DNA of 63,632 nucleotides from positions 1 to 63,632 of the forward strand of contig WOZK01000019.1 of assembly GCA_011620275.1 (NCBI GenBank), written 5' to 3'. Of this stretch, positions 159 through 24,973 are shown in pieces. A model generated the notes under the pieces. The model did not search any database, was not told where the DNA came from, and was given only the letters and a program-made list of their open reading frames with translations. Numbering within the stretch: position 1 is the first letter of the stretch; each line of letters opens with the position of its first letter. A program made the translations under genes and the position numbers. This DNA is from Candidatus Omnitrophota bacterium (GTDB lineage Bacteria; Omnitrophota; Gorgyraeia; Gygaellales; Profunditerraquicolaceae).

Positions 159-1422
159 ATGAAGTTTTCCGTGCCGACTAACTGGCAGACGGATCTACTG
201 GATACGATAGATACTTCGTCGGTAGCCGAAGTTTACGGCAAAATGGAACCCGATTGCCTGGGCGGCGCACATGCTTACTGCCTGCTTCCTTCAGCCGGCA
301 GGAAAGCGCTTTGCCGCGAGGTCGGGCGCGCTCATTCTCTGGGATTGGCTTTTAATTATCTTTTGAACCCGGTTTGCACAGGCAATATGGAATGGACGAG
401 GAGGGGGCAGGCGAGGATACGCCGTCTTCTTGACGTTATTTCTATCACAGGGGTGGATGGGGTGACCGTTTCCAACACCCTATCTGCTGGCTCTGGTGAA
501 GAAATCATTCCCTCATTTCAAGATCTCGGTTTCGGTGGGTGCCGCAGTGGATACACCGGCGCGCGCCGCTTACTGGGAAGATATGGGGGCCGAACAGATT
601 ACCTTCTCCTGCGCGGATGTCAACCGTGATTTTCGCCTGCTGGGCGCTATACGCAGGCGCGTACACTGCCGTCTGCAATTGATAGCCAACCTGCCGTGTC
701 TGCCCAATTGTCATCTTCAACGGTATCACGGGAATATCTCCAGCCACGCCTCGCGCAGGCGCGAAACAGGAAGTTTCCATGTCGATTATTGTTCTCTTCT
801 TTGCAGGTTCATGCGTTTGTCTGAGCCGGAAAGGATGTTATCGGCGGTATGGATCCGTCCCGAGGATGTGCGTTTCTACGAAGAAGCCGGCGTTGACCGC
901 ATAAAGCTTGTGGACAGGGGAATGAAGACCGCGGAGTTGGCGCGCATCGTTTCGGCTTATACAGCCGGCAGGTACGAGGGGAATCTCCTGGATCTCTTTC
1001 CTTTTAACACGGATAAATACGTGGTTAATTCCGGCCCGCAGATTTTAAAGAAGTTTTTTTATTTCTTCCGGCCTTTTCAATACGACATTCTGCGCCTGGC
1101 TGCTCTCGGTCGCGTGCTTTCTGCCGGAGGGATATATTTGGATAACCGTAAACTGGACGGCTTTCTGGGATTTTTTCGTCAGGGAAAGTGCCGCGGATAT
1201 GATTGTTCCTCCTGCGGTTACTGCCGCGACGCGGCTTCCAAAGCTTTGACCGTCTCTGCCGGCATCAAAGAGGCCGCGCTCGGGACTTATCGCAGGGCTC
1301 TCGACGATCTCGCCGGAGGAGGTATTTTTTTATCAAGGATAAAAGCCGGAGCGGAAGAAAACAAACACGGTGTGCTTGTCCGTGAAACAACCGAGGGCAT
1401 TTCTTCAAATCCGGCTTTCTAA
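159..1422 (+). pseudogene. U32-family (peptidase U32 / UbiU-UbiV-like) paralog with broken reading frame
   Basis: ORF 159-629 (MKFSVPTNWQ...GVTVS) and ORF 496-1422 (PYLLALVKKSFPHFKIS..VNRDF..CLPNC..DYCSLLC..CRGYDCSSCGYC) together align end to end with intact paralogs at 6601, 7785 and 17463. The frame switches inside aacaccc at 474-480, and the out-of-frame tail is junk-like. Confidence 0.6.
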
Positions 1423-1435
1423 ATTCCGCCTCAGA

Positions 1436-1444
1436 TGCTATAAT
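1436..1444 (+). promoter_or_regulatory. candidate extended -10 element in the 419-nt spacer
   Basis: TGcTATAAT (TATAAT 1439-1444) just after stop 1422; -35 region poor (tttcta 1416-1421). Confidence 0.25.
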
Positions 1445-1841
1445 CATAAAATCTGCGGAGGTCATGCGGTATGTCCCCGCGCCGGTGTTGTCCTGGACCG
1501 ATCACTCGATACGGCAATAAAAAACCGCGGTTTGCCCGAAAGGCGTACCAGGGAATATATTTCTTCCCGCTTAAAAGCGCGAATGGAATTTTTCTATCCG
1601 CGGGGAGATGAACTCTGCGCCTGGAGTTTATACATGCGCGGATAGGGTTTGGCCGCTCCTTTCGAAAATCCTGGAATGATAGCAGTATTCCGCTTCGGCA
1701 AATAGCGGACGCTTGACTTAAGCAATTAGACAGGTTCACTACCAAGGCTTGTCAAAGAATCAGCCGCGGAGTTTCATTTGTAAATCCCGGTTTTTACGAA
1801 TTGAAACGAATGCCGGGCATAAAAAAAGGGGGCAATCGTTT

Positions 1842-3419
1842 ATGTCTAATTCCACGGATATCAGAAAAATCCTGCTGGTGCGGCCTCCTCGTTATTTATG
1901 GCCGTTTATAAACGAATCGGATAATTTTCTTCTGCCGCTAGGACTCCCCTGTATAGCCGCCTCGGTGCGCAGGGCCTTTCCGGAGATAACAGTCAAGATA
2001 ATAGACTGTCCTCCCTTAAAGATCGGCTGGAAGAGCCTGCGAGAGATAATCGAGTTCGAAAGACCGGATATTATAGGGGCAGGGGAGGAGGCCCTTTATC
2101 ACCATGAGGCAGTCCGTCTTTTTTCTCTCGCCAAGGATATAGATCCGTGCATAGTTACCGTGGCCGGCGGGCATTTCTTTTCCTGGATGTATGAGCACAG
2201 CCTTAAGTCGTTCCCGCTGGATTTTATTGTGCGTTTCGAAGGGGAAGAGACGATCGTGGAGCTTATAGCCGCCCTGCGCAGAGGGGCGGATATTTCCGGG
2301 GTTAAAGGGATCGCCTACCTCAAGAACGGCAGGGCCGTGCGCACGGCCCTGCGCGAGATGGTTTCCGACTTGGACAGCCTGCCGCTGCCGGCTTATGACC
2401 TTATGCCGATGGGCAAATATTCCCGTTTCGGTTATATCTGGCCGCAAAGCGCCACATTGGAGCATTCCCGTGGCTGCGTGGACCGCTGCAATTTTTGTTC
2501 ATTATGGACGTTCTGGGGCACGCAGAAACGCAGCGAGATCGAGAAGGGCGAGCTTGAAGTTTCTCCGCGTTACCGGACCAAAAGCGTTCAGCGCGCGCTG
2601 GCGGAGGTGGATATCATCTATAAAGAATACGGACGGCGTTATATTATTTGGGCCGACCCTACCTTCAACGTTCAGCCCGAGTGGACAAACGAGTTTTGCG
2701 AAGGCCTTTTGAAGAGAAATTATAAAGATCTTTACTGGTGGGCTTTTATCCGAGCCGATTTCACTTTACGCGACGAGAAACTCGGCATACTTGAAAAAAT
2801 GGTCAGGGCCGGAATGGTGCATCCGCTGATCGGGGTGGAGCGGTGCTGTTCTGAAGATCTGCGCCTCCTTAAGAAAACCGCCTATACTCGTGATATGATC
2901 AAGGAGGTTTTTGCGATATTCAAGAACAAATACCCGCACGTTTTTCGTCAGGGGACGTTTGTTACCTGTTTGCCGTTCGACACCAGGAAGTCCATGCTTG
3001 ATCTCGTTAAATACGCGGTGGAGATAGATATAGATTATCCCGCTTTCCATCCGGTAGCCCCGGTGCCCGGCACGTTCCTTTACCAGGAGGTTAAAGCGCA
3101 GGGCCGTCTCCTGGAAACCGATTTCAGCAAATACGACTGGGCAACCCCATTGATGTCTTCCGAGACCGGATTGTCCAGGGCGGAGCTTTCAGCCTTGAAT
3201 ATGGAATTGAACAAGCGTTATGTGCTTTACAGGCCGCACTGGTTGATACGCGGGCTTTTCTCACCGCATAAACATAAGAGGGGTCTTTACCGCTGGTTTC
3301 TAAAGAATACCCTGAAGATGCTTTTTTTGTCTCTTTGGGATGCCCTGCGCGGGAAAAAAAGTGTTGAAGGGTTGACCGGTTTTATGCGCTTAAGGCGCCC
3401 CGGATGGTATGAAAGCTGA
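1842..3419 (+). CDS. B12-binding domain radical SAM protein (class B rSAM)
   Basis: N-terminal Rossmann-like segment ILLVRPP..LPLGLPCIAASV, EGEETIVELI, LDSLPLPAYDL, rSAM motif CVDRCNFC. ATG 1842 follows AAGGGGG; the ORF-track TTG start at 1749 is less likely. Confidence 0.9.
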   Translation: MSNSTDIRKILLVRPPRYLWPFINESDNFLLPLGLPCIAASVRRAFPEITVKIIDCPPLKIGWKSLREIIEFERPDIIGAGEEALYHHEAVRLFSLAKDIDPCIVTVAGGHFFSWMYEHSLKSFPLDFIVRFEGEETIVELIAALRRGADISGVKGIAYLKNGRAVRTALREMVSDLDSLPLPAYDLMPMGKYSRFGYIWPQSATLEHSRGCVDRCNFCSLWTFWGTQKRSEIEKGELEVSPRYRTKSVQRALAEVDIIYKEYGRRYIIWADPTFNVQPEWTNEFCEGLLKRNYKDLYWWAFIRADFTLRDEKLGILEKMVRAGMVHPLIGVERCCSEDLRLLKKTAYTRDMIKEVFAIFKNKYPHVFRQGTFVTCLPFDTRKSMLDLVKYAVEIDIDYPAFHPVAPVPGTFLYQEVKAQGRLLETDFSKYDWATPLMSSETGLSRAELSALNMELNKRYVLYRPHWLIRGLFSPHKHKRGLYRWFLKNTLKMLFLSLWDALRGKKSVEGLTGFMRLRRPGWYES

Positions 3420-3465
3420 GGTTTTTTGATTCTTTCAAACCGCTGCGGTCCGGACAGGATATTGT

Positions 3466-5118
3466 ATGAAAGATAGACAATGTTGCACCCGGGGGCTTAT
3501 GAAAAAACGTATCGGGATATCGCTTCTGGTTATAGCACTCTTGACAGGAGCCGCTGTTCGCCTTAACGGATTGGCGGAGAGAGCATTGTGGTTTGACGAG
3601 GCTCTTGTGGTTTTGGAGGCCGGCAAACCGCTGTCCAAAGTGCTCGGTCAACGCGCGGAGGGAATCCACCCGCCCCTTTTTCGCTTTATGGCGCACTGGT
3701 TGATGAAGGGGGCCTCCGGTGTGCTGGTGAAAGATTCCACATCTTGTCTTTCCGAGGAGAAAGGCGCCCCTGCGTTAATGGCGACCGACCTGCGCGAAAG
3801 CCCGCGCGAGATCGTTCTGCGCCTGCTTTCGGTGTCCTTCAGTCTCATTTCCATTCTTTTGTTTTTTTTGCTCGGCAAGGCGCTTTTTGGCGCCGGTACG
3901 GCCGCGCTGGCGGCGGGAATAATGAGCGTTTCCGCTTTTCAGGTTTATTACGCGCAGGAAATAAAGATCTATGCCTTGCTGCAATTTTTAAGTCTGTTAT
4001 CCTGTTTATTTTTCATAAAAGCTCTGAAGAGCGATAAGAGATTATACTGGGGAGGATACGCGTTAATCAGCGCCCTGGCGCTTTACACGCATTATTTCGC
4101 CGCGATGCTGCTGGCCGCGCAGGCGGTTTTTGTTCCGGTCTATTTATTGCGCCGCGGCGCCCAACGGAAGCTGAAATATTGGGCCGGTTCTTTATTTCTG
4201 GCGTTTTTATTTTTCTTACCATGGAGCATTAACGCCTTGAAACACCTCCGCCGGGTGAACGACAATTTTTGGTTGCCGTCTTTCACCATTGCGGACTTCA
4301 TCGGGGTTTTTAGGAATTTCTTTTTCGGTTATCATACGGGTTTTTCGTGGTTTTTCACCGGATGGGTTGTTGTCTCGGCCGTTTCACTGTTTGGAGCTGT
4401 GTCTATATTCAGGGAGGCTCTCGAGGGTCGGAAGGAGAATCTCTGGGATCCCGGGGATTCCGCCTTTTTCATATTTTCCTTTCTGCTGGTCCCGCCAGCG
4501 GCCGCGGTGGTTCTTTCCTTTGTCTTTCGCCCTGTATTCTTCGACCGGCCGTTCATTTTTCTCTCCGGCCCTTGTTATCTGCTCTTTGCCGCCGGGTTGT
4601 GCGGGATCTGGAGCAGGCGGCGGGCCGCGGCAGTATGTCTGGCGGCTCTATTCCTGCTGGTCTCTCTATTCTCCCTGCGCAGCTATTACCGCAATGAATA
4701 TTTCGAACCCTCTGCCGGAGTAGTGATGCGGAAACCTCTGCGGGAGGTCGGCGGATACATAACGCGCAATTACCATGCCGGGGACATGGTGGTATTGTCT
4801 CATCATAGCATCTTATATCCGCTCGTCTGTTATTTGCCGCAGGGGATTCGCGCCAGAATGTTCTTGCTGGATTTACCTATACAAAGCAAGTATGACCGGA
4901 GCACTCTCTTCGGCATGCTGAGGACCGCCGGGGTCAAGACTCTCCATTGGCGCGATCTGCCGGCCGGGAGCGGGGTTTGGCTGATATGCAGCGGCTGGAA
5001 CAGGGAGATAATCCGGCCTCCGGCCGAGATGGAGGAGTTTCTTTCTCGCCATAGGCTCGTAAAGGAAAACCGCGCGTTCGAAGGAGTAGAGATTTATTAT
5101 TACGAGCTGCGGAGATGA
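3466..5118 (+). CDS. GT-C fold membrane glycosyltransferase, GT39/GT83 (PMT_2 / ArnT-like)
   Basis: Multi-pass hydrophobic N-terminal two thirds, first-loop LWFDEA motif, IHPPLF..LLGKALFGAGTAALAAG region typical of ArnT/PMT_2, soluble C-terminal domain; alternative start ATG 3499. Confidence 0.8.
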   Translation: MKDRQCCTRGLMKKRIGISLLVIALLTGAAVRLNGLAERALWFDEALVVLEAGKPLSKVLGQRAEGIHPPLFRFMAHWLMKGASGVLVKDSTSCLSEEKGAPALMATDLRESPREIVLRLLSVSFSLISILLFFLLGKALFGAGTAALAAGIMSVSAFQVYYAQEIKIYALLQFLSLLSCLFFIKALKSDKRLYWGGYALISALALYTHYFAAMLLAAQAVFVPVYLLRRGAQRKLKYWAGSLFLAFLFFLPWSINALKHLRRVNDNFWLPSFTIADFIGVFRNFFFGYHTGFSWFFTGWVVVSAVSLFGAVSIFREALEGRKENLWDPGDSAFFIFSFLLVPPAAAVVLSFVFRPVFFDRPFIFLSGPCYLLFAAGLCGIWSRRRAAAVCLAALFLLVSLFSLRSYYRNEYFEPSAGVVMRKPLREVGGYITRNYHAGDMVVLSHHSILYPLVCYLPQGIRARMFLLDLPIQSKYDRSTLFGMLRTAGVKTLHWRDLPAGSGVWLICSGWNREIIRPPAEMEEFLSRHRLVKENRAFEGVEIYYYELRR

Positions 5119-5137
5119 GACTGTACGCGAGCAAAAT

Positions 5138-6604
5138 ATGAAAGTATTGTTGATCAATCCCGATTCCAGCGTGGTATCTAAAAGCTGGGCTTATCGTAAA
5201 TTTTGCGCTCCGATAGCCCCTCTGGGGCTGGCTTATCTCTCGGCCGTGCTGGAAAAAGACGGTTTTGAGGTCGCCGTCTATGACCAGTTTGCCCTGAAAA
5301 CCGGGGATGACGCTCTTTTGCGGAAGATATCTTCATTCAGACCGGGGGTGATAGGTATTGCGGCTCTAACTACCGTTGTCCCGGACATTAAAAGGATGAT
5401 ATCCCGTATCCGCGCAGAAAACACGGACGTTACGATAATTCTGGGCCATATCCACGCCACGTGTTTTCCGGCGGACATGCTGGGAGACGGCATGGCGGAT
5501 ATCGTAGTGAGGGGAGAAGGGGAGGATACCCTGCTGGAGGTCTGCCGTAACATCCGTTCCGGCAAATCCTGGAGAGAAGCGCCGGGCATAAGCTATAGCG
5601 AAGACGGCGCGGTTGTCGAAAACCCGGACAGGCCTCTGCGCGACGACCTCGATTCCCTTCCGTTGCCGGCCTGGCATTTATTCGACGCCGACCTTTATAA
5701 GGAGGCGCCTCTGGTAGCGATCAACAGGTCCCGCGCGTTCCCGATTATCGCTTCCCGGGGATGCAAATACCGCTGTTATTATTGTTCCCAGGATAAGGTA
5801 TATCCGCGCATGCGTTTCCGTGACCTTGAGAAAGTGGCCGACGAAATGGAGTATTTTGCCGATACCTTGCGGGTCGGATATTGCGGTTTTAGCGACGCTT
5901 ATTTCCCCTGGGACGAAGATAGCGGCCTGCGTTTCTGCCGGATAATCATCGAGCGCGGTCTGCATAAAAAGGTCCGTTGGTGCACGGAGACCAGGGTGGA
6001 TAAGGTGACTCCGCGCCTGCTGCGCGCGATGAAGGAAGCCGGGGCGCATCTTATCATGTACGGGATAGAAGTGGGCAGCCGGGAGGTGCTCGAGCGGTTG
6101 AACAAGCACACCACCCTGGAACAGGCCCGGTTCGCGGTGAGGGAGACCGCGAAAGCGGGTATCTTTTCGCAGGGGTTGTTTATTCTCGGCCTGCCCGGGG
6201 AAACGCCGGCTACATGCAGGCAGACGATAGATTTCGCCAGAGAGTTGAATTGCGACATAGTAAAGTTCAATCTTGCGGTGCCTTATCCGGGGTCCCGTTT
6301 CTTCGAGGAACACGGAAAAAACCTGATAAAAGAATCTCCGGAGAAGTTCACCAGCTGGGCTGACTGGACACACCTGGGAGGGGGGCTGGTCTATGCCCCG
6401 CAAGGCATGAGCGGCGACGCCTTGCGTTATTTCCAGCGCAAGGGTATGATGGAATACTACGCCCGTCCGGGAGTCATAGTAAAAAACCTCTCCCGGGGAA
6501 CAATAACCTTGCGCAATCTTATTTTCGGCGGGGCCTGGCTGTTGTTTATTTTTCTTTTCGGCAGTCTGAAAAAGACAAAAAAACTATTTCTAAAACGATC
6601 ATGA
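5138..6604 (+). CDS. B12-binding domain radical SAM protein
   Basis: MKVLLINPD..APLGLAYLSAVLEKDGFEV, RGEGEDTLLEV, LDSLPLPAWHL, CKYRCYYC. Confidence 0.9.
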   Translation: MKVLLINPDSSVVSKSWAYRKFCAPIAPLGLAYLSAVLEKDGFEVAVYDQFALKTGDDALLRKISSFRPGVIGIAALTTVVPDIKRMISRIRAENTDVTIILGHIHATCFPADMLGDGMADIVVRGEGEDTLLEVCRNIRSGKSWREAPGISYSEDGAVVENPDRPLRDDLDSLPLPAWHLFDADLYKEAPLVAINRSRAFPIIASRGCKYRCYYCSQDKVYPRMRFRDLEKVADEMEYFADTLRVGYCGFSDAYFPWDEDSGLRFCRIIIERGLHKKVRWCTETRVDKVTPRLLRAMKEAGAHLIMYGIEVGSREVLERLNKHTTLEQARFAVRETAKAGIFSQGLFILGLPGETPATCRQTIDFARELNCDIVKFNLAVPYPGSRFFEEHGKNLIKESPEKFTSWADWTHLGGGLVYAPQGMSGDALRYFQRKGMMEYYARPGVIVKNLSRGTITLRNLIFGGAWLLFIFLFGSLKKTKKLFLKRS

Positions 6605-7788
6605 AATTGATAGTTCCGACAAACTGGCAGGACGATATTCTGCAGGAGCTTCCTCTACGGGAGATAAGCGGGTTTTACGGCCAGCTTGACCGGGATTTTA
6701 CCGGGGGAGGCAGGCCTTCCTGCATTTTACCCCCTGTCGGCCGCGCGAAAGCCGCCGCGCATATCGCTTCGATCCGCGCCAAAGGGCTGTCTTTCAACTA
6801 TCTGCTGAATTCGGCTTGTATGGGCAACGCCGAATTGACCCCGGCGGGCAGAAAACGATTGCGCGCATTGCTTGACTGGATATGCGGTTGCGGGGCCGAC
6901 TGCGTGACCGTTTCCATACCGTACTTGCTGGAATTCATAAAGGTTAATTATCCGTGTTTGAAGATATATGCTTCCACGCAGGCGGGGATAAAAACCGGGG
7001 AAGAGGCCGTTTTCTGGGAAAAGATGGGCGCCAGCGGTTTGACTCTTTCGGCAACGGACGTCAACCGCGATTTCGAGGCTTTACGGCAGATACGTTCGGC
7101 CGTCGGCTGCGAACTGCGCCTGATAGCCAATCTGGATTGTCTCTACGGCTGTCCTTTTTTCAGGTATCATTCCGCGATCAGTTCGCATGCCTCGCAGGAG
7201 GGGCACCGGAGCGGGGGATTCGTGATAGATTATTGTTTTTTGCGTTGTTCTCTCATCAAACTCAAGTCCCCGGAGCACTTTATCCGTTCCGGGTGGATTC
7301 GTCCCGAGGACAAGGGGATTTACGCAGAGAGAGGGATAAACGCCTTGAAGCTGGTCAGCCGCACTATGCCCACGAGCAGGATAAAACGGATAGTCACGGC
7401 TTACAGTCAAGGACGTTATGACGGCAATCTGGCGGACCTTTTTTCGGAATCTTCCGATACGCTCCGCCGCGCGGCCTCTTGGTTTAGGAACCTTTTTTTC
7501 TTCTTCCGGCCCTTGAGCGTGGACCTGCGCAGGCTCTACGCTTTCCGGGACATCGTTTCGCACAGAAAGATATTCATAGACAACCGTTCGCTTGACGGAT
7601 TCCTGGATTTCTTTCTTCATTCTTCCTGCGCGCATAAAGACTGCGGCGAGTGCGGTTATTGCAAAGATGTCGCCGCACGCTCGGTGAAGATAGATCCGGA
7701 TTATCTGAAACAGGCGTCCGGACGTTTCGAAGCTTTCCTTGAAGAGATTGCCGGCGGCGCTCTCTTCCGTACGGGGGGAATAAGATGA
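6601..7788 (+). CDS. U32-family Fe-S protein (peptidase U32 / UbiU-UbiV-TrhP-like)
   Basis: MKLIVPTNWQ, FNYLLNS, KIYASTQ, VNRDF, LIANLDCLYGCPFFRYH, DYCFLRC, WIRPED; C-terminal CAHKDCGECGYC (7627-7662); ATGA overlap with upstream gene. Confidence 0.8.
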   Translation: MKLIVPTNWQDDILQELPLREISGFYGQLDRDFTGGGRPSCILPPVGRAKAAAHIASIRAKGLSFNYLLNSACMGNAELTPAGRKRLRALLDWICGCGADCVTVSIPYLLEFIKVNYPCLKIYASTQAGIKTGEEAVFWEKMGASGLTLSATDVNRDFEALRQIRSAVGCELRLIANLDCLYGCPFFRYHSAISSHASQEGHRSGGFVIDYCFLRCSLIKLKSPEHFIRSGWIRPEDKGIYAERGINALKLVSRTMPTSRIKRIVTAYSQGRYDGNLADLFSESSDTLRRAASWFRNLFFFFRPLSVDLRRLYAFRDIVSHRKIFIDNRSLDGFLDFFLHSSCAHKDCGECGYCKDVAARSVKIDPDYLKQASGRFEAFLEEIAGGALFRTGGIR

Positions 7789-10264: not shown

Positions 10265-10291
10265 TATTGCGGTACAGGAGGTGCGGTTTAC

Positions 10292-12022
10292 ATGCGCGCA
10301 GAGAAACAAACATCGTTAAAATACCTAAAACCTCATTTGCCTTTTATATTGCTGACGCTGCTTTTTATAACCTTCAGGATAGTTCAATTGTATTGCTGCA
10401 GACACGTCGCTCATCCCGAAGAAGCCGTACTGGGGTTGTTCATAAAACACGTTATCGAGGGCGGTAGTGCGGTCCCGCTTTCTGACTATTTCCTTTCGTA
10501 TTCCGGGGGTTCTTTTATCTCCTGCCTGCTTGCGCTGCCGTTGTGTAAAATGTTCGGCGTTTCGATATTATCGTTACGCTGGTGTTCCCTTTTGCACAGC
10601 GCCGCCATTCTGCTATTGCTTTATTGCTTCGTTAGAAGGTTCTGGGGCGGGACCACGGCCATTCTTGCCGCTTTTTTTTACATCTTGTCACCGCCGTCTT
10701 ATTCTCATTACACTTCGCTTTTCCTGAGCGGAGAATATCTGGTGATTTTTCTTGATATAGTGCTGATGTATATTCTTCTTGCCATGTTTGTTCCCGAAGG
10801 AGGATGCGGAGAAAGAAAAAGAATGTTTCTTACCGCGGCCCTGGGGTTCGCTTCCGGGCTGGCGGCATATTTTCTGTTTTCCTCCGTTCTGTTTGCGGCG
10901 TTCGCCTTCGGCGTCTGGCTTATGCTGCGCGGCAGATCCCTGCGCAGAGGAGAATTACTCCTATACGGCACATTTCTGCTGCTTGGGCTGCTGCCGTATT
11001 TTTATTCTTCATGCCTGTATCCGGAGCAGAGCCGGTTATTTCTGGGTTCGCTCCTGGAGACGCCCGCGGGGCTGGCGCAAAAAACAAGATGGTTTTTCCC
11101 TTTTCTTGTTTCCGAATTCACGCGCTCTTTCCATTTCGAATTCTTCGGCTATTACCCGGGACGGGCTTACTGGAATCAGATCTACGTTTTGTTCTTCTGC
11201 GGCGCGTGGCTGTATTTGATATGGGTGAACCGTTCATCTTTCCGGCGTATGACTACAGGTATTTTTTTGAAAAGAGAGGGCAAGCGCGGCGCGTCTTCCG
11301 ATCTCAGACCGGAGTCGCTTCTGCTGCCGCTGCCGGTTTTATTCATTGTTGTTTGCTTTTTTAGCGCTTATTGCCGGCCGACGTTCTTTCATTACAGGTA
11401 TTTCTTTCCCCTATACCCGATATTCCAGATTTTTTGCGCGGTTTCGTTATCAGCGTTGTTTTCAGGAAAAGGCAGAGCGGTTAAGGCCTGCGCGCTGGCG
11501 GTAGTGTCGTTTATTATCCTGATATCCTGGCGCGGGGTGACCGGTATAGCGGGTAAACAGGATTTCTGGGAGTCCTATCCATTACCGGAGGCGATATCGC
11601 GCTTGAAGGAAAAAGGGATTGAATATGTTTACACGGAATATTTTCTGAAATGGCAGATATTGTTCGAAAGCGGGGAAGAAGTTATCGCTTCCTGCGAAGG
11701 GATGCCGTTCTTCTATTTTTCTGATTTTGAGGGAGCAAGCGACTCTCGTGTCTATGGCAGTTCGTACCGCTTATACGAGGAAGTTGTGGATAATGCGGTG
11801 CGAAAGGGCGCTTCTTACGCCTATCTCTTTCGCCTGGATCCCCGCCTTCCGTATTACGGGATGCTGAGAAATTATTTGTCCGCTGCCGGAGTTGAATACC
11901 GGATGGAGACGGTCGGAAGTGAACTGGTATTGTTTTACGGTTTCGGGCGTCCGGTCACGCCCGCGCAAGCCGAGCTTGAGTCCGCTATGAAGGACTATCT
12001 GCGTAGAAATGGCGAACGGTAA
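10292..12022 (+). CDS. GT-C fold membrane glycosyltransferase-like protein (PMT_2 / ArnT-like, divergent)
   Basis: AGGAGG before ATG; many TM helices; MFGVSILSLRWCSLLHSAAILLLLYCFVRRFWGGTTAILAAFFYILSPP matches the ArnT/PMT_2 signature region; first-loop acidic pair is HPEEA instead of DE; soluble C-terminal domain. Confidence 0.65.
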   Translation: MRAEKQTSLKYLKPHLPFILLTLLFITFRIVQLYCCRHVAHPEEAVLGLFIKHVIEGGSAVPLSDYFLSYSGGSFISCLLALPLCKMFGVSILSLRWCSLLHSAAILLLLYCFVRRFWGGTTAILAAFFYILSPPSYSHYTSLFLSGEYLVIFLDIVLMYILLAMFVPEGGCGERKRMFLTAALGFASGLAAYFLFSSVLFAAFAFGVWLMLRGRSLRRGELLLYGTFLLLGLLPYFYSSCLYPEQSRLFLGSLLETPAGLAQKTRWFFPFLVSEFTRSFHFEFFGYYPGRAYWNQIYVLFFCGAWLYLIWVNRSSFRRMTTGIFLKREGKRGASSDLRPESLLLPLPVLFIVVCFFSAYCRPTFFHYRYFFPLYPIFQIFCAVSLSALFSGKGRAVKACALAVVSFIILISWRGVTGIAGKQDFWESYPLPEAISRLKEKGIEYVYTEYFLKWQILFESGEEVIASCEGMPFFYFSDFEGASDSRVYGSSYRLYEEVVDNAVRKGASYAYLFRLDPRLPYYGMLRNYLSAAGVEYRMETVGSELVLFYGFGRPVTPAQAELESAMKDYLRRNGER

Positions 12023-13358
12023 AGTGGTGCTTCTGCTAAACGCTCCTTGCGATAACCGTTTTTTTGTCTCCAGACAGGCGCCCCTGGGGTTATTGTATAT
12101 AGCTTCTTATCTTCGTAAACACGGGGTGGAGGTAGCTCTTTTAGACCTTAACGTTATGCCGTTTTGGCGCGGCAGGCTTAATTATCTGGTAAAGAAACTC
12201 AGACCGGCCATAATCGGCGTATCGGTCAACTATTCCAGCCGTAAGGAGGCCATTGAGATTTGTAGGATTATCAAGGCCGTCGATCCGGGGATAACGATAG
12301 TGCTGGGCGGCCCGCAGCCTACGATTTCTCCCGGTGAATTTTTCGCCAGCAGAGCGGACTATATAATACCTTACGAAGGGGAACGAGCGATGCTGGAATT
12401 TGCGCGGGCGGGATCTGACAGGTCGGCGCTTAGGAATGTGTTTTCTTGCAGGGACGCCGGGCTGGCGGATTCAGTGCGTAAGGCCGACAGGTATCCCGTC
12501 GAAGATTTGAACGACCTGCCTTTTCCGGCGTATGATCTGATCGACATCAGGCCTTATTACATAAACAGTTACAAGAGGAAGCCGATTGTTTCCGTGCTTA
12601 CTTCTCGGGGATGTCCGAACAACTGTATTTTTTGCAGCCAGGCCGTTTCCGGGCGTTCCTGGAGGGCGCGTTCCGCCGGTAACGTGGCCGACGAATTCGA
12701 ATGGCTCACAAGGGAGATAGGCGCAGGGGAAATATCCGTGGAGGACGATAATTTCACGGCGGATATCGGCAGGGTTTACGAGTTCTGCGGATTGTTGAGA
12801 AAACGGGGAATCAGCATTCCCTGGCAGCTGGCGAACGGCGTGCGCGCCGACCGTTTGACGAGGGACCTCCTTAGCGAACTCAAGGTATCCGGCTGCTGGA
12901 AGATTGCCATCGCGCCCGAGGTCGGCGACGATGAGAGCATGAAACGAATACGCAAGGGAATGAACATGGAGCATTTCCGGCAGGCCGCGCGCTGGTGCCG
13001 GGAGACCGGCATGGTTTATTACGCTTATTTTCTTATGGGGTTCCCTTTCCAGGGGGAAAAAGAACTGCGTGCTATAATAGATTTTGCCGAAGAGCTGGAT
13101 CCCCTGCTGATGGATCTGTCCAAGATCGTCCCTTTTCCCGGTACGGAGATATACGATACGCTTGCTTCCGGCGCAGGAACGAATATCTCCTATTACTACA
13201 GAGGACGGGACCCGCTTATAGAGCGTTATTACCGAAAAGCGTATCTTGATTTCTACCTGCGTTCGGGAAAACTGCGCAGGATAATCTCGGCCATAGGGAT
13301 CAGGCAGTTTTGTTCGCTGGCTCGTTACGCCTGCCGGGTACTCCTGGCTGGACGTTGA
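12009..13358 (+). CDS. B12-binding domain radical SAM protein (paralog group with 13370 and 25738)
   Basis: VVLLLNAP..APLGLLYIASYLRKHGVEVALLDLN, GGPQPTISP, LNDLPFPAYDL, CPNNCIFC, GCWKIAIAPEVGD. Confidence 0.9.
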   Translation: MANGKVVLLLNAPCDNRFFVSRQAPLGLLYIASYLRKHGVEVALLDLNVMPFWRGRLNYLVKKLRPAIIGVSVNYSSRKEAIEICRIIKAVDPGITIVLGGPQPTISPGEFFASRADYIIPYEGERAMLEFARAGSDRSALRNVFSCRDAGLADSVRKADRYPVEDLNDLPFPAYDLIDIRPYYINSYKRKPIVSVLTSRGCPNNCIFCSQAVSGRSWRARSAGNVADEFEWLTREIGAGEISVEDDNFTADIGRVYEFCGLLRKRGISIPWQLANGVRADRLTRDLLSELKVSGCWKIAIAPEVGDDESMKRIRKGMNMEHFRQAARWCRETGMVYYAYFLMGFPFQGEKELRAIIDFAEELDPLLMDLSKIVPFPGTEIYDTLASGAGTNISYYYRGRDPLIERYYRKAYLDFYLRSGKLRRIISAIGIRQFCSLARYACRVLLAGR

Positions 13359-13369
13359 CGGAACCGGAA

Positions 13370-14704
13370 ATGAGAAAAAAAATACTTCTTATAAACGCCC
13401 CATCTAGTCGAAAAGATTGCATCTGCGTGTTGCCTCCCCTGGGGGTGCTCTCCTTAGCGGCGTTCCTGAGACGGGCCGGTTTTGGAGTTGCGGTCGCCGA
13501 CTTCAACGCCGATAGGCGCTGGCGCGCTAAACTCGGCGCGCTCATCAGCGGGCATCGGCCGGAGGTGGTGGGGATCTCAAGCAATTTCTCCAATAAGGCA
13601 CTCTCATTGGAGATCGCCTTGATGGTCAAAAGGTTCGACGAGAACATAACCGTGGTGGCAGGCGGGCCGCATCCCACGATCGCTCCGGAGGAGTACGCAG
13701 GCGGTTCCATAGATTACGTCATCCCTTACGAAGCGGAACTGCCGCTTCTGGATTTTCTTGCTTCTTCCGACAAGAGCGCCGTTCCCGGAGCAGTCTCTTT
13801 GAGGCGGGGGGACGTGAATAAAGCGGTAGCCGGTATCCAGCGCTGCTGTGTGGAAGATATGGATAGTCTTCCTTTTCCGGCCTATGACATGGTGGATCTG
13901 CGCGGGTATATAGGGAGTATATACAGGAAAAGGCCGTTAGCGTCTATAGTTACTTCCCGGGGGTGTCCGTATAGTTGTATATTCTGCAGTCAGGGGGTAT
14001 TCGACCGTCGCTGGCGCGCTTTCTCCGCCGGTTATGTGGCGGAACAGATGCTCTGGATGAAGGAATCTCTGGGTATAAGGGAACTTCTCATAGAGGACGA
14101 TAACTTCACTTATGACATTGAGCGCGTCTTCAGGATCTGCGAGCTTATCCTTTCCAGCGGGAAAAAAGTCAACTGGCAGCTCTCCAACGGGGTAAGGGCC
14201 GATAGACTGAGCAGGGAACTGCTGGCCGTTATGAAACGGGCCGGGTGCTGGAAGATATCCATTGCCCCGGAGGTCGGAGATGAGGAGAGTCTGAAAGTAC
14301 TGAGTAAAGGCATGACTATGGAGCATTTTGTTCGCGCCGCGCAATGGTGCAAAGAGCTCAAGATCGAATTCTTCTGTTTCTTTCTGATGGGATTCCCTTT
14401 TCAGGACCGTGTCAACATGGAGAATACCGTGAATTTCGCCCTGCGTCTGGATCCTTTAATGATGGATCTGAACAAGATAGTACCTTTCCCGGATACTCCA
14501 TATTTCTCCAGGTTCCCGGACCGGAGCATATACAAAAAAGCGCACAGTTATCAATATAAAGGCGGTGACCGCGAAGTCGACCGGATGTGTACCAGGGCAT
14601 ACCTGCGTTTTTACGCCAGGCCGGAGAAACTAATGCGTATTTTGCTGGCCATGGGGCCGCTCCAATTCCTGCGTTTCGTCAAATACGCCGGCAATGTTTT
14701 GTGA
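13370..14704 (+). CDS. B12-binding domain radical SAM protein (tandem paralog of 12009)
   Basis: ATG 13370 (MRKKILLINAPSS) lies 11 nt after stop 13358; the ORF-track start 13310 overlaps the upstream gene. GGPHPTIAP, MDSLPFPAYDM, CPYSCIFC, GCWKISIAPEVGD. Confidence 0.9.
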   Translation: MRKKILLINAPSSRKDCICVLPPLGVLSLAAFLRRAGFGVAVADFNADRRWRAKLGALISGHRPEVVGISSNFSNKALSLEIALMVKRFDENITVVAGGPHPTIAPEEYAGGSIDYVIPYEAELPLLDFLASSDKSAVPGAVSLRRGDVNKAVAGIQRCCVEDMDSLPFPAYDMVDLRGYIGSIYRKRPLASIVTSRGCPYSCIFCSQGVFDRRWRAFSAGYVAEQMLWMKESLGIRELLIEDDNFTYDIERVFRICELILSSGKKVNWQLSNGVRADRLSRELLAVMKRAGCWKISIAPEVGDEESLKVLSKGMTMEHFVRAAQWCKELKIEFFCFFLMGFPFQDRVNMENTVNFALRLDPLMMDLNKIVPFPDTPYFSRFPDRSIYKKAHSYQYKGGDREVDRMCTRAYLRFYARPEKLMRILLAMGPLQFLRFVKYAGNVL

Positions 14705-14735
14705 TTTCGCCTTATGGTGATGTGTAGGTGCATAT

Positions 14736-16136
14736 ATGGAAAGAAAACCGTTTAAAGAACGGAACCGGATAATGCTGGTACGTTTCTCCCCGCGGCAGGG
14801 GATAAAACTGACGCATCCTTTGGGGGTGATGCCGCCGTTTACTCTTAAATACGTCCAGGCTTTGTTAGAGAAAGAGGGTTCCTTCCGCGTTGAATTGGCG
14901 GATTGTTCGCTTTATCCGCTTACGCCGGAGGGGCTGGTGCGAAAGGCGGCGTCTTTCGCGCCAGACTGTCTGGTGATGCAGGCAGATGTGTTAACGTATC
15001 GGCCGGCGCGGGAGTTTGCCGAGCTGGCGCGCGCGCGGGGGATGGAATCGTTCATTTTGACAGGGCCGGGGGTTGATCTTTTTGATGCCGCGGAGCTCTT
15101 TCCGTTATGCATAAGCGGAGAAGGAGAAGTAAAAATTGCGGAGGTAATAAAGGAGTGCGCGCGCGCGCGCGATTTTTCTTCCAAGCGTCTGCGTTCCCGG
15201 GCCCAGGAATGCGCGGGTAAGGAATTCCTCGTGGAGGATCCGGACAGTCTGCCGTTCCCGTCTTACAGCCGCCGTGAAATTGAAGGTTACTCGGGGATAT
15301 TCCCGTTGCGTTTTAACGGCAGGGCCAAGTATGGTTTTGTGCTTTCCGGCAGGGGGTGTCCCCACGACTGCGGTTTTTGTTCCGGGGCGATCAGGGTAAG
15401 CTGCGGTTCCCGTGTGCGTTTTCGGAGTCCCGGGAACGTGGTGGACGAGATGGTGTCACTTGTCGGAGCTGGAGCCAACATCATTTCTTTCGCCGACGAT
15501 GATTTTAGTTGTTTGGAGAAGCACGCGACCGGGATATGCGAGGAGATACTGCGCAGGAAATTGAGCGTGCGCTGGACTGCTCAGGCGCGTCTGGACGAGC
15601 TCTCGCGGGAAGCTCTGCGCTTGATGAAGCGTTCCGGTTGTATCCTTCTGCGACTGGGCGTCGAATCCGGCTGCGAACGGGTTTTGAAAGGGCTTAGTAA
15701 ATGTGCGGATCCGGTTGAGTGGAAACGGCTGGCCGGGCAGGTTTCCGGTTGGCTGGCTAACGAGGGGATAGCCTGCGACGCAATGTTTATGATCGGCAGC
15801 CCGGGAGAGACGGGACCGGAGATCGGAGAGACGATGAGGCTTTGTTCTTCCATGAAGCCGGATTTCATCCAGGTGCACTATTACGCTCCTTATGCGGATT
15901 CACGGATGTCCGCCGGAGTTGCTGCATCGTGCTGTACTCCGCATCATTACGCGGTTCCGGAGCGCAGTTTGAGCGCGGTGGATATTCCCGGTTTGAGAAG
16001 ACTGAGGGCTTTTTTCTATCTGCGGCTGTGCCTGGATCCTTTCTTCATCCTGCGTCATTTGAGCAGGTATGGTTTTTTCTATTTGCGCAATCCCCGGGTG
16101 TTGCTGCGGCTGTCAGGGATGCTGTTGAGTTTCTGA
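14736..16136 (+). CDS. B12-binding domain radical SAM protein (divergent)
   Basis: IMLVRFSP..LGVMPPFTLKYVQALLEKEG, PDSLPFPSY, CPHDCGFC, LRLGVESG. Confidence 0.85.
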   Translation: MERKPFKERNRIMLVRFSPRQGIKLTHPLGVMPPFTLKYVQALLEKEGSFRVELADCSLYPLTPEGLVRKAASFAPDCLVMQADVLTYRPAREFAELARARGMESFILTGPGVDLFDAAELFPLCISGEGEVKIAEVIKECARARDFSSKRLRSRAQECAGKEFLVEDPDSLPFPSYSRREIEGYSGIFPLRFNGRAKYGFVLSGRGCPHDCGFCSGAIRVSCGSRVRFRSPGNVVDEMVSLVGAGANIISFADDDFSCLEKHATGICEEILRRKLSVRWTAQARLDELSREALRLMKRSGCILLRLGVESGCERVLKGLSKCADPVEWKRLAGQVSGWLANEGIACDAMFMIGSPGETGPEIGETMRLCSSMKPDFIQVHYYAPYADSRMSAGVAASCCTPHHYAVPERSLSAVDIPGLRRLRAFFYLRLCLDPFFILRHLSRYGFFYLRNPRVLLRLSGMLLSF

Positions 16137-16157
16137 AAAGTTCTTTGAGGGAGAAAA

Positions 16158-17372
16158 ATGCGCAAGTTTCCCAAAAGAAGCATTTATATTAATGCCGGGG
16201 AACCGGCAAGAATTTTTGAACTGGCGCGTTCGGGGAAATTGCTTCACGGAGGTGAAATAGAAAGGTTCGAACGCGCTATGTCTGAATTCACCGGCGCCGG
16301 GTATGCGGCGGCGGCCGGGTCCGGGCGCTGCGCGCTTTCCCTGATCCTCAAGGCTGCCGGATTGCACGCGGGGGACGAGATAATCGTTTGCGCTTATAAC
16401 TATCCCGGTCTAGTGGCGGCACTTCTGAAAGAGAATTACCGGGTCGTCCCGGTGGACGTCGGGCCCGGAGGATTCCAGATGGACGCGTCTGCGATGGAGA
16501 GCAGCATAGGTCCTCGCACGCGCGCCGTAATCGCCACTCATTTGTACGGACAACCCTGCGATATTCGGGGGATTTGCGCCGTCGCGCGCAGGCGCGGCCT
16601 GACGGTAATAGAGGATGCCGCGCATTCCTTGGGAACGATGATCGGCGGCAGACATTCCGGAACTTTCGGGGATTTCGGTTTCCTGAGTTTCTCGGGTTCT
16701 AAACCGCTTAATACCTCTTGCGGCGGTATGGTCCTGACAAATAGCGAGGAATTATACCGGAAGATAGTTTCCGGGCTTGATGCCTGCGTTTATCCTCATC
16801 CCCTGGACTTGATCCGGATGCGCCTTTTTACTTACGCGTATTCTTTTATTACGGGGAGGGTCTTTTTTAACCTGGCCGGCTATCCGGCGGCCGTGCTGGC
16901 AGGATTGTCCGGTTGGGATCCCTGGGTGAAGTATAATAGTATGCCGCGCGGCGAATTTGCAGATCGGAGGTTGAGGTTTAGCAATATGCAGGCCTGCGTC
17001 GGTCTGGGCTATATGGATCGACTCACAGAGATGTTTACAGCGAAGTGCCGCTGCGGCGAGAGGCTTTATCGGCAATTAAAAGGGACGGGCGCGCCCCCGG
17101 CTCCCGCGGAGGGATCGAATTATTTTATGATACCGCTGCTGGCAAGGGACAGACGTAGGCTGTACAGGCAACTGCTGCTACGGGGGATAGACGCTAATAA
17201 CGGCTACGCCTATGACTGTTCGTTCCTGCTGGACACGAGAAATCCCCGCGCCGCTTTGCTTGACCGAAGCACGCTTTTGCTTAATCTGCCGTTCGATACG
17301 AAGGATGATGAAGTGGATTATCTGGCGGAGCAGTTGAACGCGCTCTCCGGTGAAATGTTGCTGGCCGTGTAG
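16158..17372 (+). CDS. DegT/DnrJ/EryC1/StrS-family PLP-dependent sugar aminotransferase
   Basis: GSGRCALSLILKAAGLHAGDEIIV, THLYGQPCD, IEDAAHSLG, FSFSGSKPL (Schiff-base Lys context). Confidence 0.85.
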   Translation: MRKFPKRSIYINAGEPARIFELARSGKLLHGGEIERFERAMSEFTGAGYAAAAGSGRCALSLILKAAGLHAGDEIIVCAYNYPGLVAALLKENYRVVPVDVGPGGFQMDASAMESSIGPRTRAVIATHLYGQPCDIRGICAVARRRGLTVIEDAAHSLGTMIGGRHSGTFGDFGFLSFSGSKPLNTSCGGMVLTNSEELYRKIVSGLDACVYPHPLDLIRMRLFTYAYSFITGRVFFNLAGYPAAVLAGLSGWDPWVKYNSMPRGEFADRRLRFSNMQACVGLGYMDRLTEMFTAKCRCGERLYRQLKGTGAPPAPAEGSNYFMIPLLARDRRRLYRQLLLRGIDANNGYAYDCSFLLDTRNPRAALLDRSTLLLNLPFDTKDDEVDYLAEQLNALSGEMLLAV

Positions 17373-17462
17373 GGCCGCGTGGTTTTTTTAGCCTGAATTA
17401 CCGCGTAAGGCCGGGATTATGCTCCTGAGGCGTAGAAACCGCTGTTTATGGAGGGGTGGACG

Positions 17463-18644
17463 ATGAAACTTTTGATGCCTACGAACTGGGACGACGCGCT
17501 GGTCCCCGAATATAAGAAGCTGGGAATAGCCGAATGTTACGGTAAGCTTGCCGTGGACGTCGTGGGAGGCGGTCGGTCGGCGTTCATTCTCCCGAACGTT
17601 TCCCGTACCCGAGTCGCCGGGCATATCCGCAAGCTGCACGGGGCGGGGATTAAATTTAATTATCTTTTAAACGCCGCTTGCGGTTCTTTCCGGGAGTTTA
17701 GCCGTTCCGGGGATAGGGAGGTACGGAAACTGTTGGGTTGGCTGGCTGACGCCGGGGTGGATTCCGTTACCGTGGCCTCGCCGTATTTCCTACAGATGAT
17801 AAAGACGAAATACCCGGTTTTTAAGATCTGTGTTTCTACCAATGCCGAGGTCGCCTCTCTGCAAAAAGCGCTTTTCTGGCAGGAGCTCGGGGCGGATCAG
17901 ATTACGCTTTCGCATAACCTGGCGAATCGCGATTTCGCCCTGATAAGGCTGCTGAAGAAGAAAATCTCCTGCGAATTGAGGCTGATCGCCAACACCAGTT
18001 GCCTGCTGGATTGTCCTCTCTCCAGGTTTCATACCGCTTACGACGCCCACAGCTCGCAGGCGGATTCTACGCGCAGACCCGGTTTCGCCGTGGATTATTG
18101 CAATCTTTTTTGCAAGCTGATCCGCTTTAGCGACCCGGTGAAGTTCATCTCTTCCCAGTGGATCAGGCCGGAAGACCTGGCTGTTTATGAATCCGCCGGT
18201 ATCGGGATGTTCAAATTGATCGACAGGCGTTGCTCCACGGAGAAACTATTGCTCATCGGACGGGCTTACGCCGGCCGTAGATACGACGGTAACCTGGTGG
18301 ATCTGCTGCCGATATTTCACGGCAAGACCGTGCTTGATTCCCGCACGCTGCCGTTGAAACTCAGATATTTTTTTCATCCTCGCGAACTCAATCTTTTTTC
18401 TCTGACCGAGCTTGGGAGTATACTGCAGGATTTTAGAATCCGCATAGACAACACCAAACTGAACGGTTTCATAGGGAAATTCGTCGCTTCCGGCTGTCCG
18501 CCTGAAGGCTGCTCCGACTGCGGTTATTGCGCGCGGGTAGCCGGAGAGGCTTTGAGCTACGATAAGGAATACCTGGATTCCCTGCGTGAAAGACACGGAA
18601 ATTTTCTAAAAAAATTAGTAAACGGTGATTTGTTTCACTATTGA
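17463..18644 (+). CDS. U32-family Fe-S protein
   Basis: GGAGGGG before ATG 17463; MKLLMPTNWDD matches paralog N-termini; FNYLLNA, KICVSTN, ANRDF, CLLDCPLSRFH, DYCNLFC, WIRPED; C-terminal CPPEGCSDCGYC (18495-18530). Confidence 0.8.
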   Translation: MKLLMPTNWDDALVPEYKKLGIAECYGKLAVDVVGGGRSAFILPNVSRTRVAGHIRKLHGAGIKFNYLLNAACGSFREFSRSGDREVRKLLGWLADAGVDSVTVASPYFLQMIKTKYPVFKICVSTNAEVASLQKALFWQELGADQITLSHNLANRDFALIRLLKKKISCELRLIANTSCLLDCPLSRFHTAYDAHSSQADSTRRPGFAVDYCNLFCKLIRFSDPVKFISSQWIRPEDLAVYESAGIGMFKLIDRRCSTEKLLLIGRAYAGRRYDGNLVDLLPIFHGKTVLDSRTLPLKLRYFFHPRELNLFSLTELGSILQDFRIRIDNTKLNGFIGKFVASGCPPEGCSDCGYCARVAGEALSYDKEYLDSLRERHGNFLKKLVNGDLFHY

Positions 18645-18652
18645 GAGGGCGT

Positions 18653-22936: not shown

Positions 22937-22937
22937 A

Positions 22938-23954: not shown

Positions 23955-23959
23955 ACAAT

Positions 23960-24889: not shown

Positions 24890-24973
24890 CGTATCGCGTC
24901 GGATAACCTGTAAATATGTATTGCCCGTTGTGACGGATTGGTGGTCACAGTGGTAAAAAATGGGAGGCCACGG

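Follow-up and report, generated by a model that had tools for sequence, protein, structure and literature searches.

A family of U32-like proteins with a second, C-terminal set of four conserved cysteines has been identified through a stretch of DNA from Candidatus Omnitrophota bacterium (contig WOZK01000019.1, positions 1 to 63,632; the whole stretch of 63,632 nucleotides is referred to here as the window). Four paralogs of the family are encoded in the window, and each carries a CX4CX2CX2C motif besides the cysteines of the U32 core. These proteins are part of a large, widespread and hitherto undescribed branch of U32 TIM-barrel Fe-S enzymes, an unannotated group with its own, independently evolved Cys4 module. 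To judge from the sequences, the likeliest role of the four C-terminal cysteines is the binding of a second metal centre, apart from the core U32 cluster. This second site is a sound inference because the motif is extra to the core, defines the subfamily and is 98–100% conserved.

The U32 proteins are Fe-S enzymes that hydroxylate their substrates without O2, with prephenate as the oxygen donor (PMC10990095; PMC11574389). The field is without an in vitro assay, a cluster-bearing structure or a known electron acceptor (PMC10990095; PMC11574389). The clusters of U32 hydroxylases have been proposed to form an electron-transfer chain (PMC10990095), and a single cofactor site has been predicted for the U32 domain in a review (PMC11574389). 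With its second Cys4 site, which is conserved separately, this branch gives access to the question of how electrons enter or leave the U32 core.

The cysteine motif in the four paralogs

The four genes and their principal features, all on the forward (+) strand, are as follows.

159–1422, +: paralog 1, U32-like gene, frameshifted (+1) near 477 (tblastn matches in two frames)
1189–1224, +: paralog 1 motif, CRGYDCSSCGYC (translation)
6601–7788, +: paralog 2, 395 residues, full-length U32-like protein (PF01136, 39.5 bits)
7138–7248, +: paralog 2 core pairs CLYGC ... DYCFLRC, probable equivalent of the U32 [4Fe-4S] motif
7486–7785, +: paralog 2 C-terminal helical module, including LDGFL (7591–7605) and CAHKDCGECGYC (7627–7662)
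7785–8822, +: paralog 3, 345 residues, short form, overlapping paralog 2 by 4 bp
8667–8702, +: paralog 3 motif, CNGAACGECRFC (translation)
17448–18644, +: paralog 4, 398 residues, full-length U32-like protein (PF01136, 46.1 bits; pLDDT of the AlphaFold2 model 93.6; best PDB fold match 5D88)
18333–18641, +: paralog 4 C-terminal module (residues 296–398), including LNGFI (18459–18473) and CPPEGCSDCGYC (18495–18530; C350, C355, C358, C361)

A sequence-only reading of the window had reported the CX4CX2CX2C motif in all four paralogs, and direct translation of the 12-codon stretches agrees with it exactly in each case. Among the 233 open reading frames (ORFs) of the window (39,260 residues), the motif is confined to these four proteins, and it arises in only 5–8 of 20,000 shuffles of each paralog. 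The four copies fall into identical columns of an alignment of the paralogs, which share 35–44% sequence identity. No fifth U32-like copy is found in the window by tblastn. An origin of the motif by chance, or as a radical S-adenosylmethionine (SAM)-type CX3CX2C motif, is excluded by the shuffles, by its position in the C-terminal module and by its conservation.

The same reading placed the motif 35–45 residues from the C-terminus, behind an LDGF(L/I) segment. The distance holds for paralogs 2, 3 and 4 (41, 39 and 37 residues, respectively) but not for paralog 1 (65 residues), and in paralog 4 the preceding segment is LNGFI instead. Two core CX3C pairs are present in three of the paralogs, as had been described: CLPNC..DYCSLLC in paralog 1, CLYGC..DYCFLRC in paralog 2 and CLLDC..DYCNLFC in paralog 4. 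The corresponding region of paralog 3, GLLNC..DYDLAGC, is missing two of these cysteines (C180 is replaced by Gly and C212 by Asp), and this paralog retains all four C-terminal cysteines.

Membership in the U32 family and overall fold

Paralogs 2 and 4 score above the gathering cut-off of the U32 family PF01136 (22.4 bits), as does paralog 3 (25.5 bits), with coverage limited to positions 3–86 of the 233 in the profile. The truncated ORF of paralog 1 falls below the cut-off (16.7 bits). No Pfam family besides PF01136 matches the paralogs of the window. A profile of 61 family sequences aligns with E. coli TrhP, UbiU, RlhA and UbiV over residues 30–275, with an hhalign probability of 97.5%. The same profile matches the structure of MK0906 from Methanopyrus kandleri (PDB entry 5D88) with an E value of 1e-18.

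The AlphaFold2 (AF2) model of paralog 4 has a predicted local distance difference test (pLDDT) score of 93.6 and a predicted template modelling score (pTM) of 0.92. [quoted passage not shown] To our knowledge, 5D88 is the only solved U32 structure. The sole NCBIfam match of the paralogs is that of paralog 4 to the TrhP family NF011996, at 22.2 bits against a cut-off of 534, and none of the paralogs has an equivalog-level match to UbiU or UbiV in NCBIfam. The assignment of these proteins to the U32 family is thus borne out by the PF01136 scores, the hhalign comparison and the profile and fold matches to 5D88. On these profile and model comparisons, the paralogs are regarded as true but distant U32 members.

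The C-terminal module and its distribution

In the hhalign comparison, the region that can be aligned to UbiU, UbiV, TrhP and RlhA ends near residue 275. The motif lies beyond it, and is therefore additional to the core cysteines, as the sequence-only reading had proposed. It is located in the last ~100–120 residues of the protein, which are helical in the AF2 model of paralog 4. In this model C350 is positioned in a loop, C355 to C358 are in a short helix and C361 starts the next helix. The motif thus sits on a loop entering helix N-termini, and the local pLDDT falls to 83 there. This helical module of ~100 residues stands in place of the usual U32 C-terminal domain.

No family of Pfam or NCBIfam covers the module above threshold. 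A profile of the module finds only chance-level matches among the PDB sequences, such as exostosin (E = 0.24) and ferredoxin I of Desulfovibrio africanus (E = 0.86). The model of the isolated module (pLDDT 79.5, pTM 0.51) gives no Foldseek match in the PDB at E ≤ 0.001. No paper on the CX4CX2CX2C arrangement was found, and literature searches on U32 proteins with type III polyketide synthases (PKS), with radical SAM and Omnitrophota, and with 4Fe-4S and AlphaFold returned nothing on this branch.

The motif is highly conserved. The exact CX4CX2CX2C spacing is found in 111 of 120 close homologs, and the others are variants with X3, X5 or X6 spacing. In the family alignment the four motif columns are 98–100% Cys. 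The signature of the module is L-D-G-F-[IL]-x2-F-x4-C-x4-C-x2-C-x-[YWHF]-C-x3-A, and the more detailed consensus over 326 sequences is L-D-G-F-[IL]-x2-F-x4-C-x3-[DS]-C-[ED]-[ED]-C-[GR]-[YWHF]-C-x3-A, with an aromatic residue before the last motif cysteine in 97% of the sequences.

A profile built from the module alone has 683 matches at E ≤ 0.001 among 1.84 billion protein cluster representatives. In all 56 of the full-length matches, the module is located at residues ~290–395, behind a U32-like core; the short matches behave like gene fragments. Relatives were also collected by a scan in which each GTDB species was represented by a single genome, which gave at least 595 of them, and the motif is kept in 100 of the 106 full-length copies at the relatives' loci. 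About a dozen bacterial lineages are represented among the matches listed: Omnitrophota, Elusimicrobiota, Planctomycetota, Desulfuromonadales/Geobacter, Myxococcota, Acidobacteriota, Armatimonadota, Gemmatimonadota, Sumerlaeota, Nitrospinota and others. The nearest genome, among the matches listed, is that of Candidatus Undivivens industriae, a metagenome-assembled genome (MAG) of the Omnitrophota. The near-invariant cysteine columns, the retention in full-length relatives and the occurrence only behind a U32-like core identify the motif as the mark of a U32 subfamily, in line with the earlier proposal.

Some members of the family have additional segments. One of them (P0207, 628 residues) carries a class I SAM methyltransferase as a C-terminal fusion. 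Three others (P0156, P0219 and P0331, ~480 residues) have an extra tail of ~90 residues after the cysteine module, with weak matches to DUF2621 (PF11084).

The core cysteines and the independence of the two sites

The core cysteines of paralog 2 are C180, C184, C212 and C216, and further cysteines are found at C73 and C170. Among 121 family members, in the numbering of paralog 2, C180 is conserved in 99%, C184 in 100%, C212 in 76% and C216 in 100%. The two extra cysteines are also well conserved, C73 in 97% and C170 in 88%. The third core cysteine is substituted in about 30% of the members, and a complete core set is present in 70 of 105. In proteins with a substitution of C212, C73 could take over as the fourth core ligand. 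The codons of C73 and C170 are located at 6817–6819 and 7108–7110 of the window; C73 comes after the NYLLN strand, at a position where a cysteine of 5D88 is aligned with it.

The spacing of the core cysteines in this branch is CX3CX27CX3C. The recurrent [4Fe-4S] motif of the U32 proteins is CX6CX15CX3/4C (PMC11574389), and the cluster ligands are C169, C176, C193 and C232 in UbiU and C39, C180, C193 and C197 in UbiV (PMC6747719). In the hhalign alignment, C185, C218 and C222 of paralog 4 are paired with C170, C193 and C197 of TrhP, and the second cysteine is displaced.

The lineage of paralog 3 shows a stepwise loss of the core site. The four core positions read CCNC at 47% identity, CCDC at 59%, and GCDC at 86–94% as well as in the window itself. 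The C-terminal pattern is CCCC at every step. The lineage includes P0221 and P0267, which are orthologs of paralog 3 with the same pattern of core loss, as well as P0268 and P0269. Since all four C-terminal cysteines are kept while the core decays, the C-terminal site is independent of the core site. Paralog 3 is in effect a natural 'core-dead, tail-intact' variant for comparison. The GGGR loop is also missing from this short lineage.

Comparison with characterised U32 proteins and ferredoxins

The proteins of this branch resemble UbiU and UbiV in the U32 TIM-barrel core, in the alignment of core cysteines at three positions and in the occurrence of tandem paralogs; from gene context, lipid-like substrates are plausible here as well. 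[quoted passage not shown] The relationship is remote, however (18% identity). UbiU and UbiV have no C-terminal Cys4 motif, are found in other phyla and have other neighbours. The core spacing differs too, being CX6CX16CX38C in UbiU and CXnCX12CX3C in UbiV.

TrhP (YegQ) shares the U32 core and is the best NCBIfam match of paralog 4. It has a Peptidase_U32_C domain without a cysteine motif, whereas the helical cysteine module takes that place here. MK0906 (5D88) is the best match in both sequence and fold, and has a common cysteine after a strand of the NYLLN type. Its chain of 254 residues comprises the barrel only, with no C-terminal module, and the aligned region does not contain a CX3C pair.

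RlhA (YdcP), the 23S rRNA C2501 hydroxylase, is a parallel to the two-site arrangement. It has a C-terminal group of four cysteines (C572, C580, C611 and C614) besides those of the core, all within the last 82 residues of the E. coli protein (L003:4782–6743). Kimura et al. reported that C-terminal cysteines are conserved in the RlhA family, and that the C580A and C611A mutations abolish the formation of ho5C2501 (PMC5727448). In RlhA, however, the spacing is CX7CX30CX2C, the group follows a DUF3656 domain in a protein of 653 residues, and the substrate is RNA. Homology of the module to the C-terminal cysteine region of RlhA was considered and rejected (hhalign probability 0.13%).

The view in the sequence-only reading that U32 C-termini are not Cys-rich is therefore correct only in part, given the essential C-terminal cysteines of RlhA (PMC5727448). 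The CX4CX2CX2C arrangement itself is present in none of the four E. coli proteins. As C580 and C611 of RlhA are essential, there is precedent for an extra C-terminal cysteine site, and it would be an overstatement to call this branch unlike any characterised U32 protein.

The module also resembles, in pattern only, the single-cluster ferredoxins and the PF04060 domain of RnfB and the corrinoid Fe-S protein, with C-x2-C-x2-C-x3-A and C-x2-C-G-Y in common. These matches are below threshold (E = 0.02–0.9), and the fourth ligand here would be an upstream cysteine at X4.

Nature of the probable second metal site

The earlier proposal of a second Fe-S (or Zn) site is supported, as regards a second metal site, by the conservation of the motif and its separateness from the core; the kind of metal is suggested by the sequence pattern. 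In the reading that we prefer, and to which we give a little better than even chances, the second centre is a [4Fe-4S] cluster coordinated by the CX2CX2C triad and the upstream cysteine, acting as an electron relay. The last three cysteines of the motif are arranged as CX2CX2C with x3-A behind them, a pattern known from single-cluster ferredoxins. Such a triad is typical of cubane ligation in ferredoxins, and Zn(Cys)4 sites usually consist of two CX2C knuckles with a longer spacer. Because of this ferredoxin-like triad, and because zinc sites normally have two separated knuckles, the sequence pattern favours an Fe-S cluster over structural zinc, and we take the former to be about twice as probable as the latter. 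The near-invariant aromatic residue before the last cysteine and the following x3-A also look Fe-S-like, and the hosts live anaerobically, with enzymes that are rich in Fe-S. The place of the motif on a loop entering helix N-termini leans the same way, as do, weakly, the sub-threshold matches to Fer4_13, PF04060 and ferredoxin I. The site could nonetheless be a structural Zn(II) on the four cysteines, stapling the helical module to the barrel or to a dimer interface with no redox role; we regard this as the less probable assignment, though one to be taken seriously. The motif is very compact and is flanked by short helices, and the module itself has hardly any hydrophobic core, as the modest scores of the isolated model indicate, and it is retained in a paralog with a degenerate catalytic site, as expected of a fold-stabilising site. 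In sub-threshold Pfam matches of the module alone, zf-CXXC (E = 0.031) appears beside Fer4_13 (E = 0.037; 15.2 bits against a cut-off of 24.5) and PF04060 (E = 0.022; 14.9 bits against a cut-off of 23). Several observations count against an Fe-S relay. The module has no significant match to any known Fe-S domain in Pfam, in the PDB sequences or by Foldseek, which is also a point in favour of zinc, and a Zn(Cys)4 staple would be just as compatible with four cysteines within 12 residues. A few members do not have the first or the second motif cysteine, and two short paralogs are without the whole module. The core spacing of CX3CX27CX3C deviates from the canonical CX6CX15CX3/4C; with this spacing and the frequent replacement of the third core cysteine, the ligation of the core cluster is itself uncertain. 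Moreover, members of this branch have no assigned activity, and their chemistry is deduced from relatives and context. If the site is structural zinc, the finding reduces to an annotation signature for a family now labelled 'U32 family peptidase'. Periplasmic disulfides were also considered as a reading of the cysteines, and were set aside without a test aimed at them.

Two further readings place the module closer to catalysis or to the neighbouring enzymes. The C-terminal cysteines might belong to the catalytic apparatus, either as a cluster that folds over the mouth of the TIM barrel or as ligands replacing the variable core cysteines. ThiC, by way of analogy, has a C-terminal CX2CX4C cluster that folds back over the mouth of its TIM barrel. 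The plasticity of the core ligand set (the variable third cysteine, and the two losses in paralog 3) adds some weight to this reading, as does the requirement of RlhA for its C-terminal cysteines (PMC5727448). We consider a catalytic role improbable, however. All four positions are cysteines, which would leave the cluster without an open iron site, and the members with a complete core (70 of 105) also retain all four C-terminal cysteines. The sequence-only reading had suggested instead an electron-entry module through which the U32-like proteins would be coupled to radical SAM enzymes encoded nearby. In 34 of 79 loci, a gene for a B12-binding radical SAM enzyme is indeed located no more than 300 bp from the U32-like gene, and 49 of 79 have one within 10 kb (loci of the Omnitrophota/Elusimicrobiota clade, with the window counted as one locus), and the cluster in the window resembles repeated cassettes of U32-like, radical SAM, PMT_2 and radical SAM genes. 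On the other hand, 30 of 31 members at loci with no B12-radical SAM gene within 10 kb still have all four C-terminal cysteines, and in distant clades the family is paired with type III PKS and methyltransferase genes. This retention, together with the other partners in distant clades, argues that the module is an ancestral trait of the family rather than an adaptation to radical SAM enzymes, and an adaptor function is the least probable of these readings. Entry of electrons does not fit well either. The U32 chemistry is proposed to be oxidative (PMC10990095), and since the substrate is oxidised, a second cluster is more plausible as a relay or an exit.

In the preferred reading, the C-terminal [4Fe-4S] cluster would relay electrons between the core cluster of the catalytic site and a redox partner outside the protein, or from one subunit of a dimer to the other. 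A degenerate partner of the paralog 3 type would keep the relay site only. The enzyme would oxidise or hydroxylate a lipid-like or aromatic substrate without O2.

The gene cluster in the window

A single cluster on the + strand occupies the first ~28.5 kb of the window. Besides the four U32-like genes, it contains nine radical SAM genes (eight with a match to a B12-binding domain), three PMT_2 (GT-C) glycosyltransferase genes, a DegT aminotransferase gene, two short-chain dehydrogenase/reductase (SDR) genes of the epimerase/dehydratase type and one gene of the UbiA family. The genes other than the U32-like paralogs are listed below.

1749–3419, 5138–6604, 8819–10264, 12009–13358, 13310–14704 and 14736–16136, +: B12-binding radical SAM genes
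3466–5118, 10292–12022 and 18641–20494, +: PMT_2 (GT-C) glycosyltransferases
16158–17372, +: DegT aminotransferase
20491–21915 and 25738–27084, +: B12-binding radical SAM genes
21926–23954, +: two SDR epimerase/dehydratases
23960–24889, +: DPPR-synthase-like UbiA prenyltransferase, most similar to decaprenyl-phosphate phosphoribosyltransferase (165 bits, against a cut-off of 234)
27093–28505, +: radical SAM protein without a match to a B12-binding domain

The TTG listed as the start of the first radical SAM gene, at 1749, is probably too far upstream; in a closely related metagenome contig (L082) the gene starts at the ATG corresponding to 1842. An ORF of 252 residues that belongs to no family adjoins the UbiA-family gene and the SDR pair (21926–25696). 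The nine radical SAM neighbours have only sub-threshold matches in NCBIfam, resembling BchE, HpnJ and ApyD, and fall into no curated subfamily.

The UbiA-like and SDR genes may constitute a route like that to decaprenylphosphoryl arabinose (DPA), which would supply a polyprenyl-phosphate pentose donor to the GT-C enzymes. The cassette layout of the cluster suggests that a glycan of the envelope or a lipid-linked sugar is tailored anaerobically.

Tandem pairs and polyketide synthase operons

Paralogs 2 and 3 are an example of a recurrent arrangement. Tandem U32-like pairs with a gap of less than 60 bp are found in about 15 loci, recurrently as a long (~393 residues) and a short (~340 residues) protein.

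Window 6601–8822, and loci L006, L012, L019–L021, L030–L032, L034, L038, L047–L049 and L056: tandem U32-like pairs

UbiU-UbiV and TrhP1/TrhP2 act as hetero-oligomers (PMC6747719; PMC11574389). The recurrence of these overlapping or closely spaced pairs suggests obligate heterodimers like UbiU-UbiV, and paralogs 2 and 3 would form such a pair. At one locus, that of the Ca. Undivivens industriae MAG (L004:1–1400), the place of the paralog 2/3 pair is taken by a chimeric remnant, in which the N-terminus of paralog 2 is joined to the middle and the tail of paralog 3 in different frames. The remnant may have arisen by decay of the genes, or else paralogous repeats may have been collapsed in the assembly.

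A different gene context is found in distant clades of the family. The conserved neighbours there are a UbiE/COQ5 methyltransferase, directly downstream of the U32-like gene (9 loci), as well as an MMPL exporter (8 loci), a type III PKS (7 loci) and YceI-like proteins.

L041, L074, L069, L058, L045, L080 and L040: PKS-type operons, in MAGs of Desulfuromonadales, Geobacter, Pirellulales, Deferrimicrobia and Binataceae

The members of these operons are YceI-like, type III PKS, MMPL exporter, U32-like and UbiE/COQ5 methyltransferase genes, joined in L040 by a flavin adenine dinucleotide (FAD) monooxygenase gene. The Srs-type operons for alkylresorcinols and alkylquinones consist of a type III PKS, a methyltransferase and a flavin hydroxylase, and the U32-like gene of the distant members is in the position of the hydroxylase. 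By this analogy, the PKS-type operons suggest that alkylresorcinols or alkylquinones are made anaerobically, and the U32-like protein is a candidate for the hydroxylation of the ring without O2, in keeping with the hydroxylase function proposed for U32 proteins (PMC10990095). Such operons would yield hydroxylated phenolic lipids without oxygen. The cluster in the window differs in having no PKS gene, and the role is read from gene order alone.

The two kinds of gene context, B12-radical SAM/GT-C cassettes in Omnitrophota and PKS/methyltransferase/exporter operons elsewhere, are pointers to untested anaerobic chemistry. A bolder and rather doubtful proposal is that the branch is a two-centre U32 class of O2-independent hydroxylases or oxidases, in which the C-terminal [4Fe-4S] cluster is the missing electron outlet, paralog 3-like proteins are relay-only subunits and the substrates differ from clade to clade. 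In Desulfuromonadales, Planctomycetota and Myxococcota they would be polyketides of the alkylresorcinol type; in Omnitrophota, envelope glycolipid or polyprenyl-linked intermediates.

A gene for AroB (3-dehydroquinate synthase) is located at 55249–56340 of the window. The genome thus encodes at least part of the shikimate pathway, which would supply prephenate.

The frameshift in paralog 1

The N-terminal third of paralog 1 is in the frame of position 159, and the rest is in the frame of 478–1422 (ORF 496–1422). There is one extra base near 477, in gtt tcc aac a ccc tat ctg, which splits the segment VTVSN/PYLL over two frames. The cysteine motif is intact despite the frameshift. As assembled, paralog 1 is probably a nonfunctional pseudogene or the product of an assembly error.

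The related metagenome contig L082 is 95% identical to the window, but only from position 1855 onward. It has orthologs of paralogs 2, 3 and 4. Positions 1–1854 of the window, which include the whole of paralog 1, are missing from this contig, and GGDEF genes are found in that place. Paralog 1 is thus likely to be a decaying, strain-specific duplicate, or again an error of assembly.

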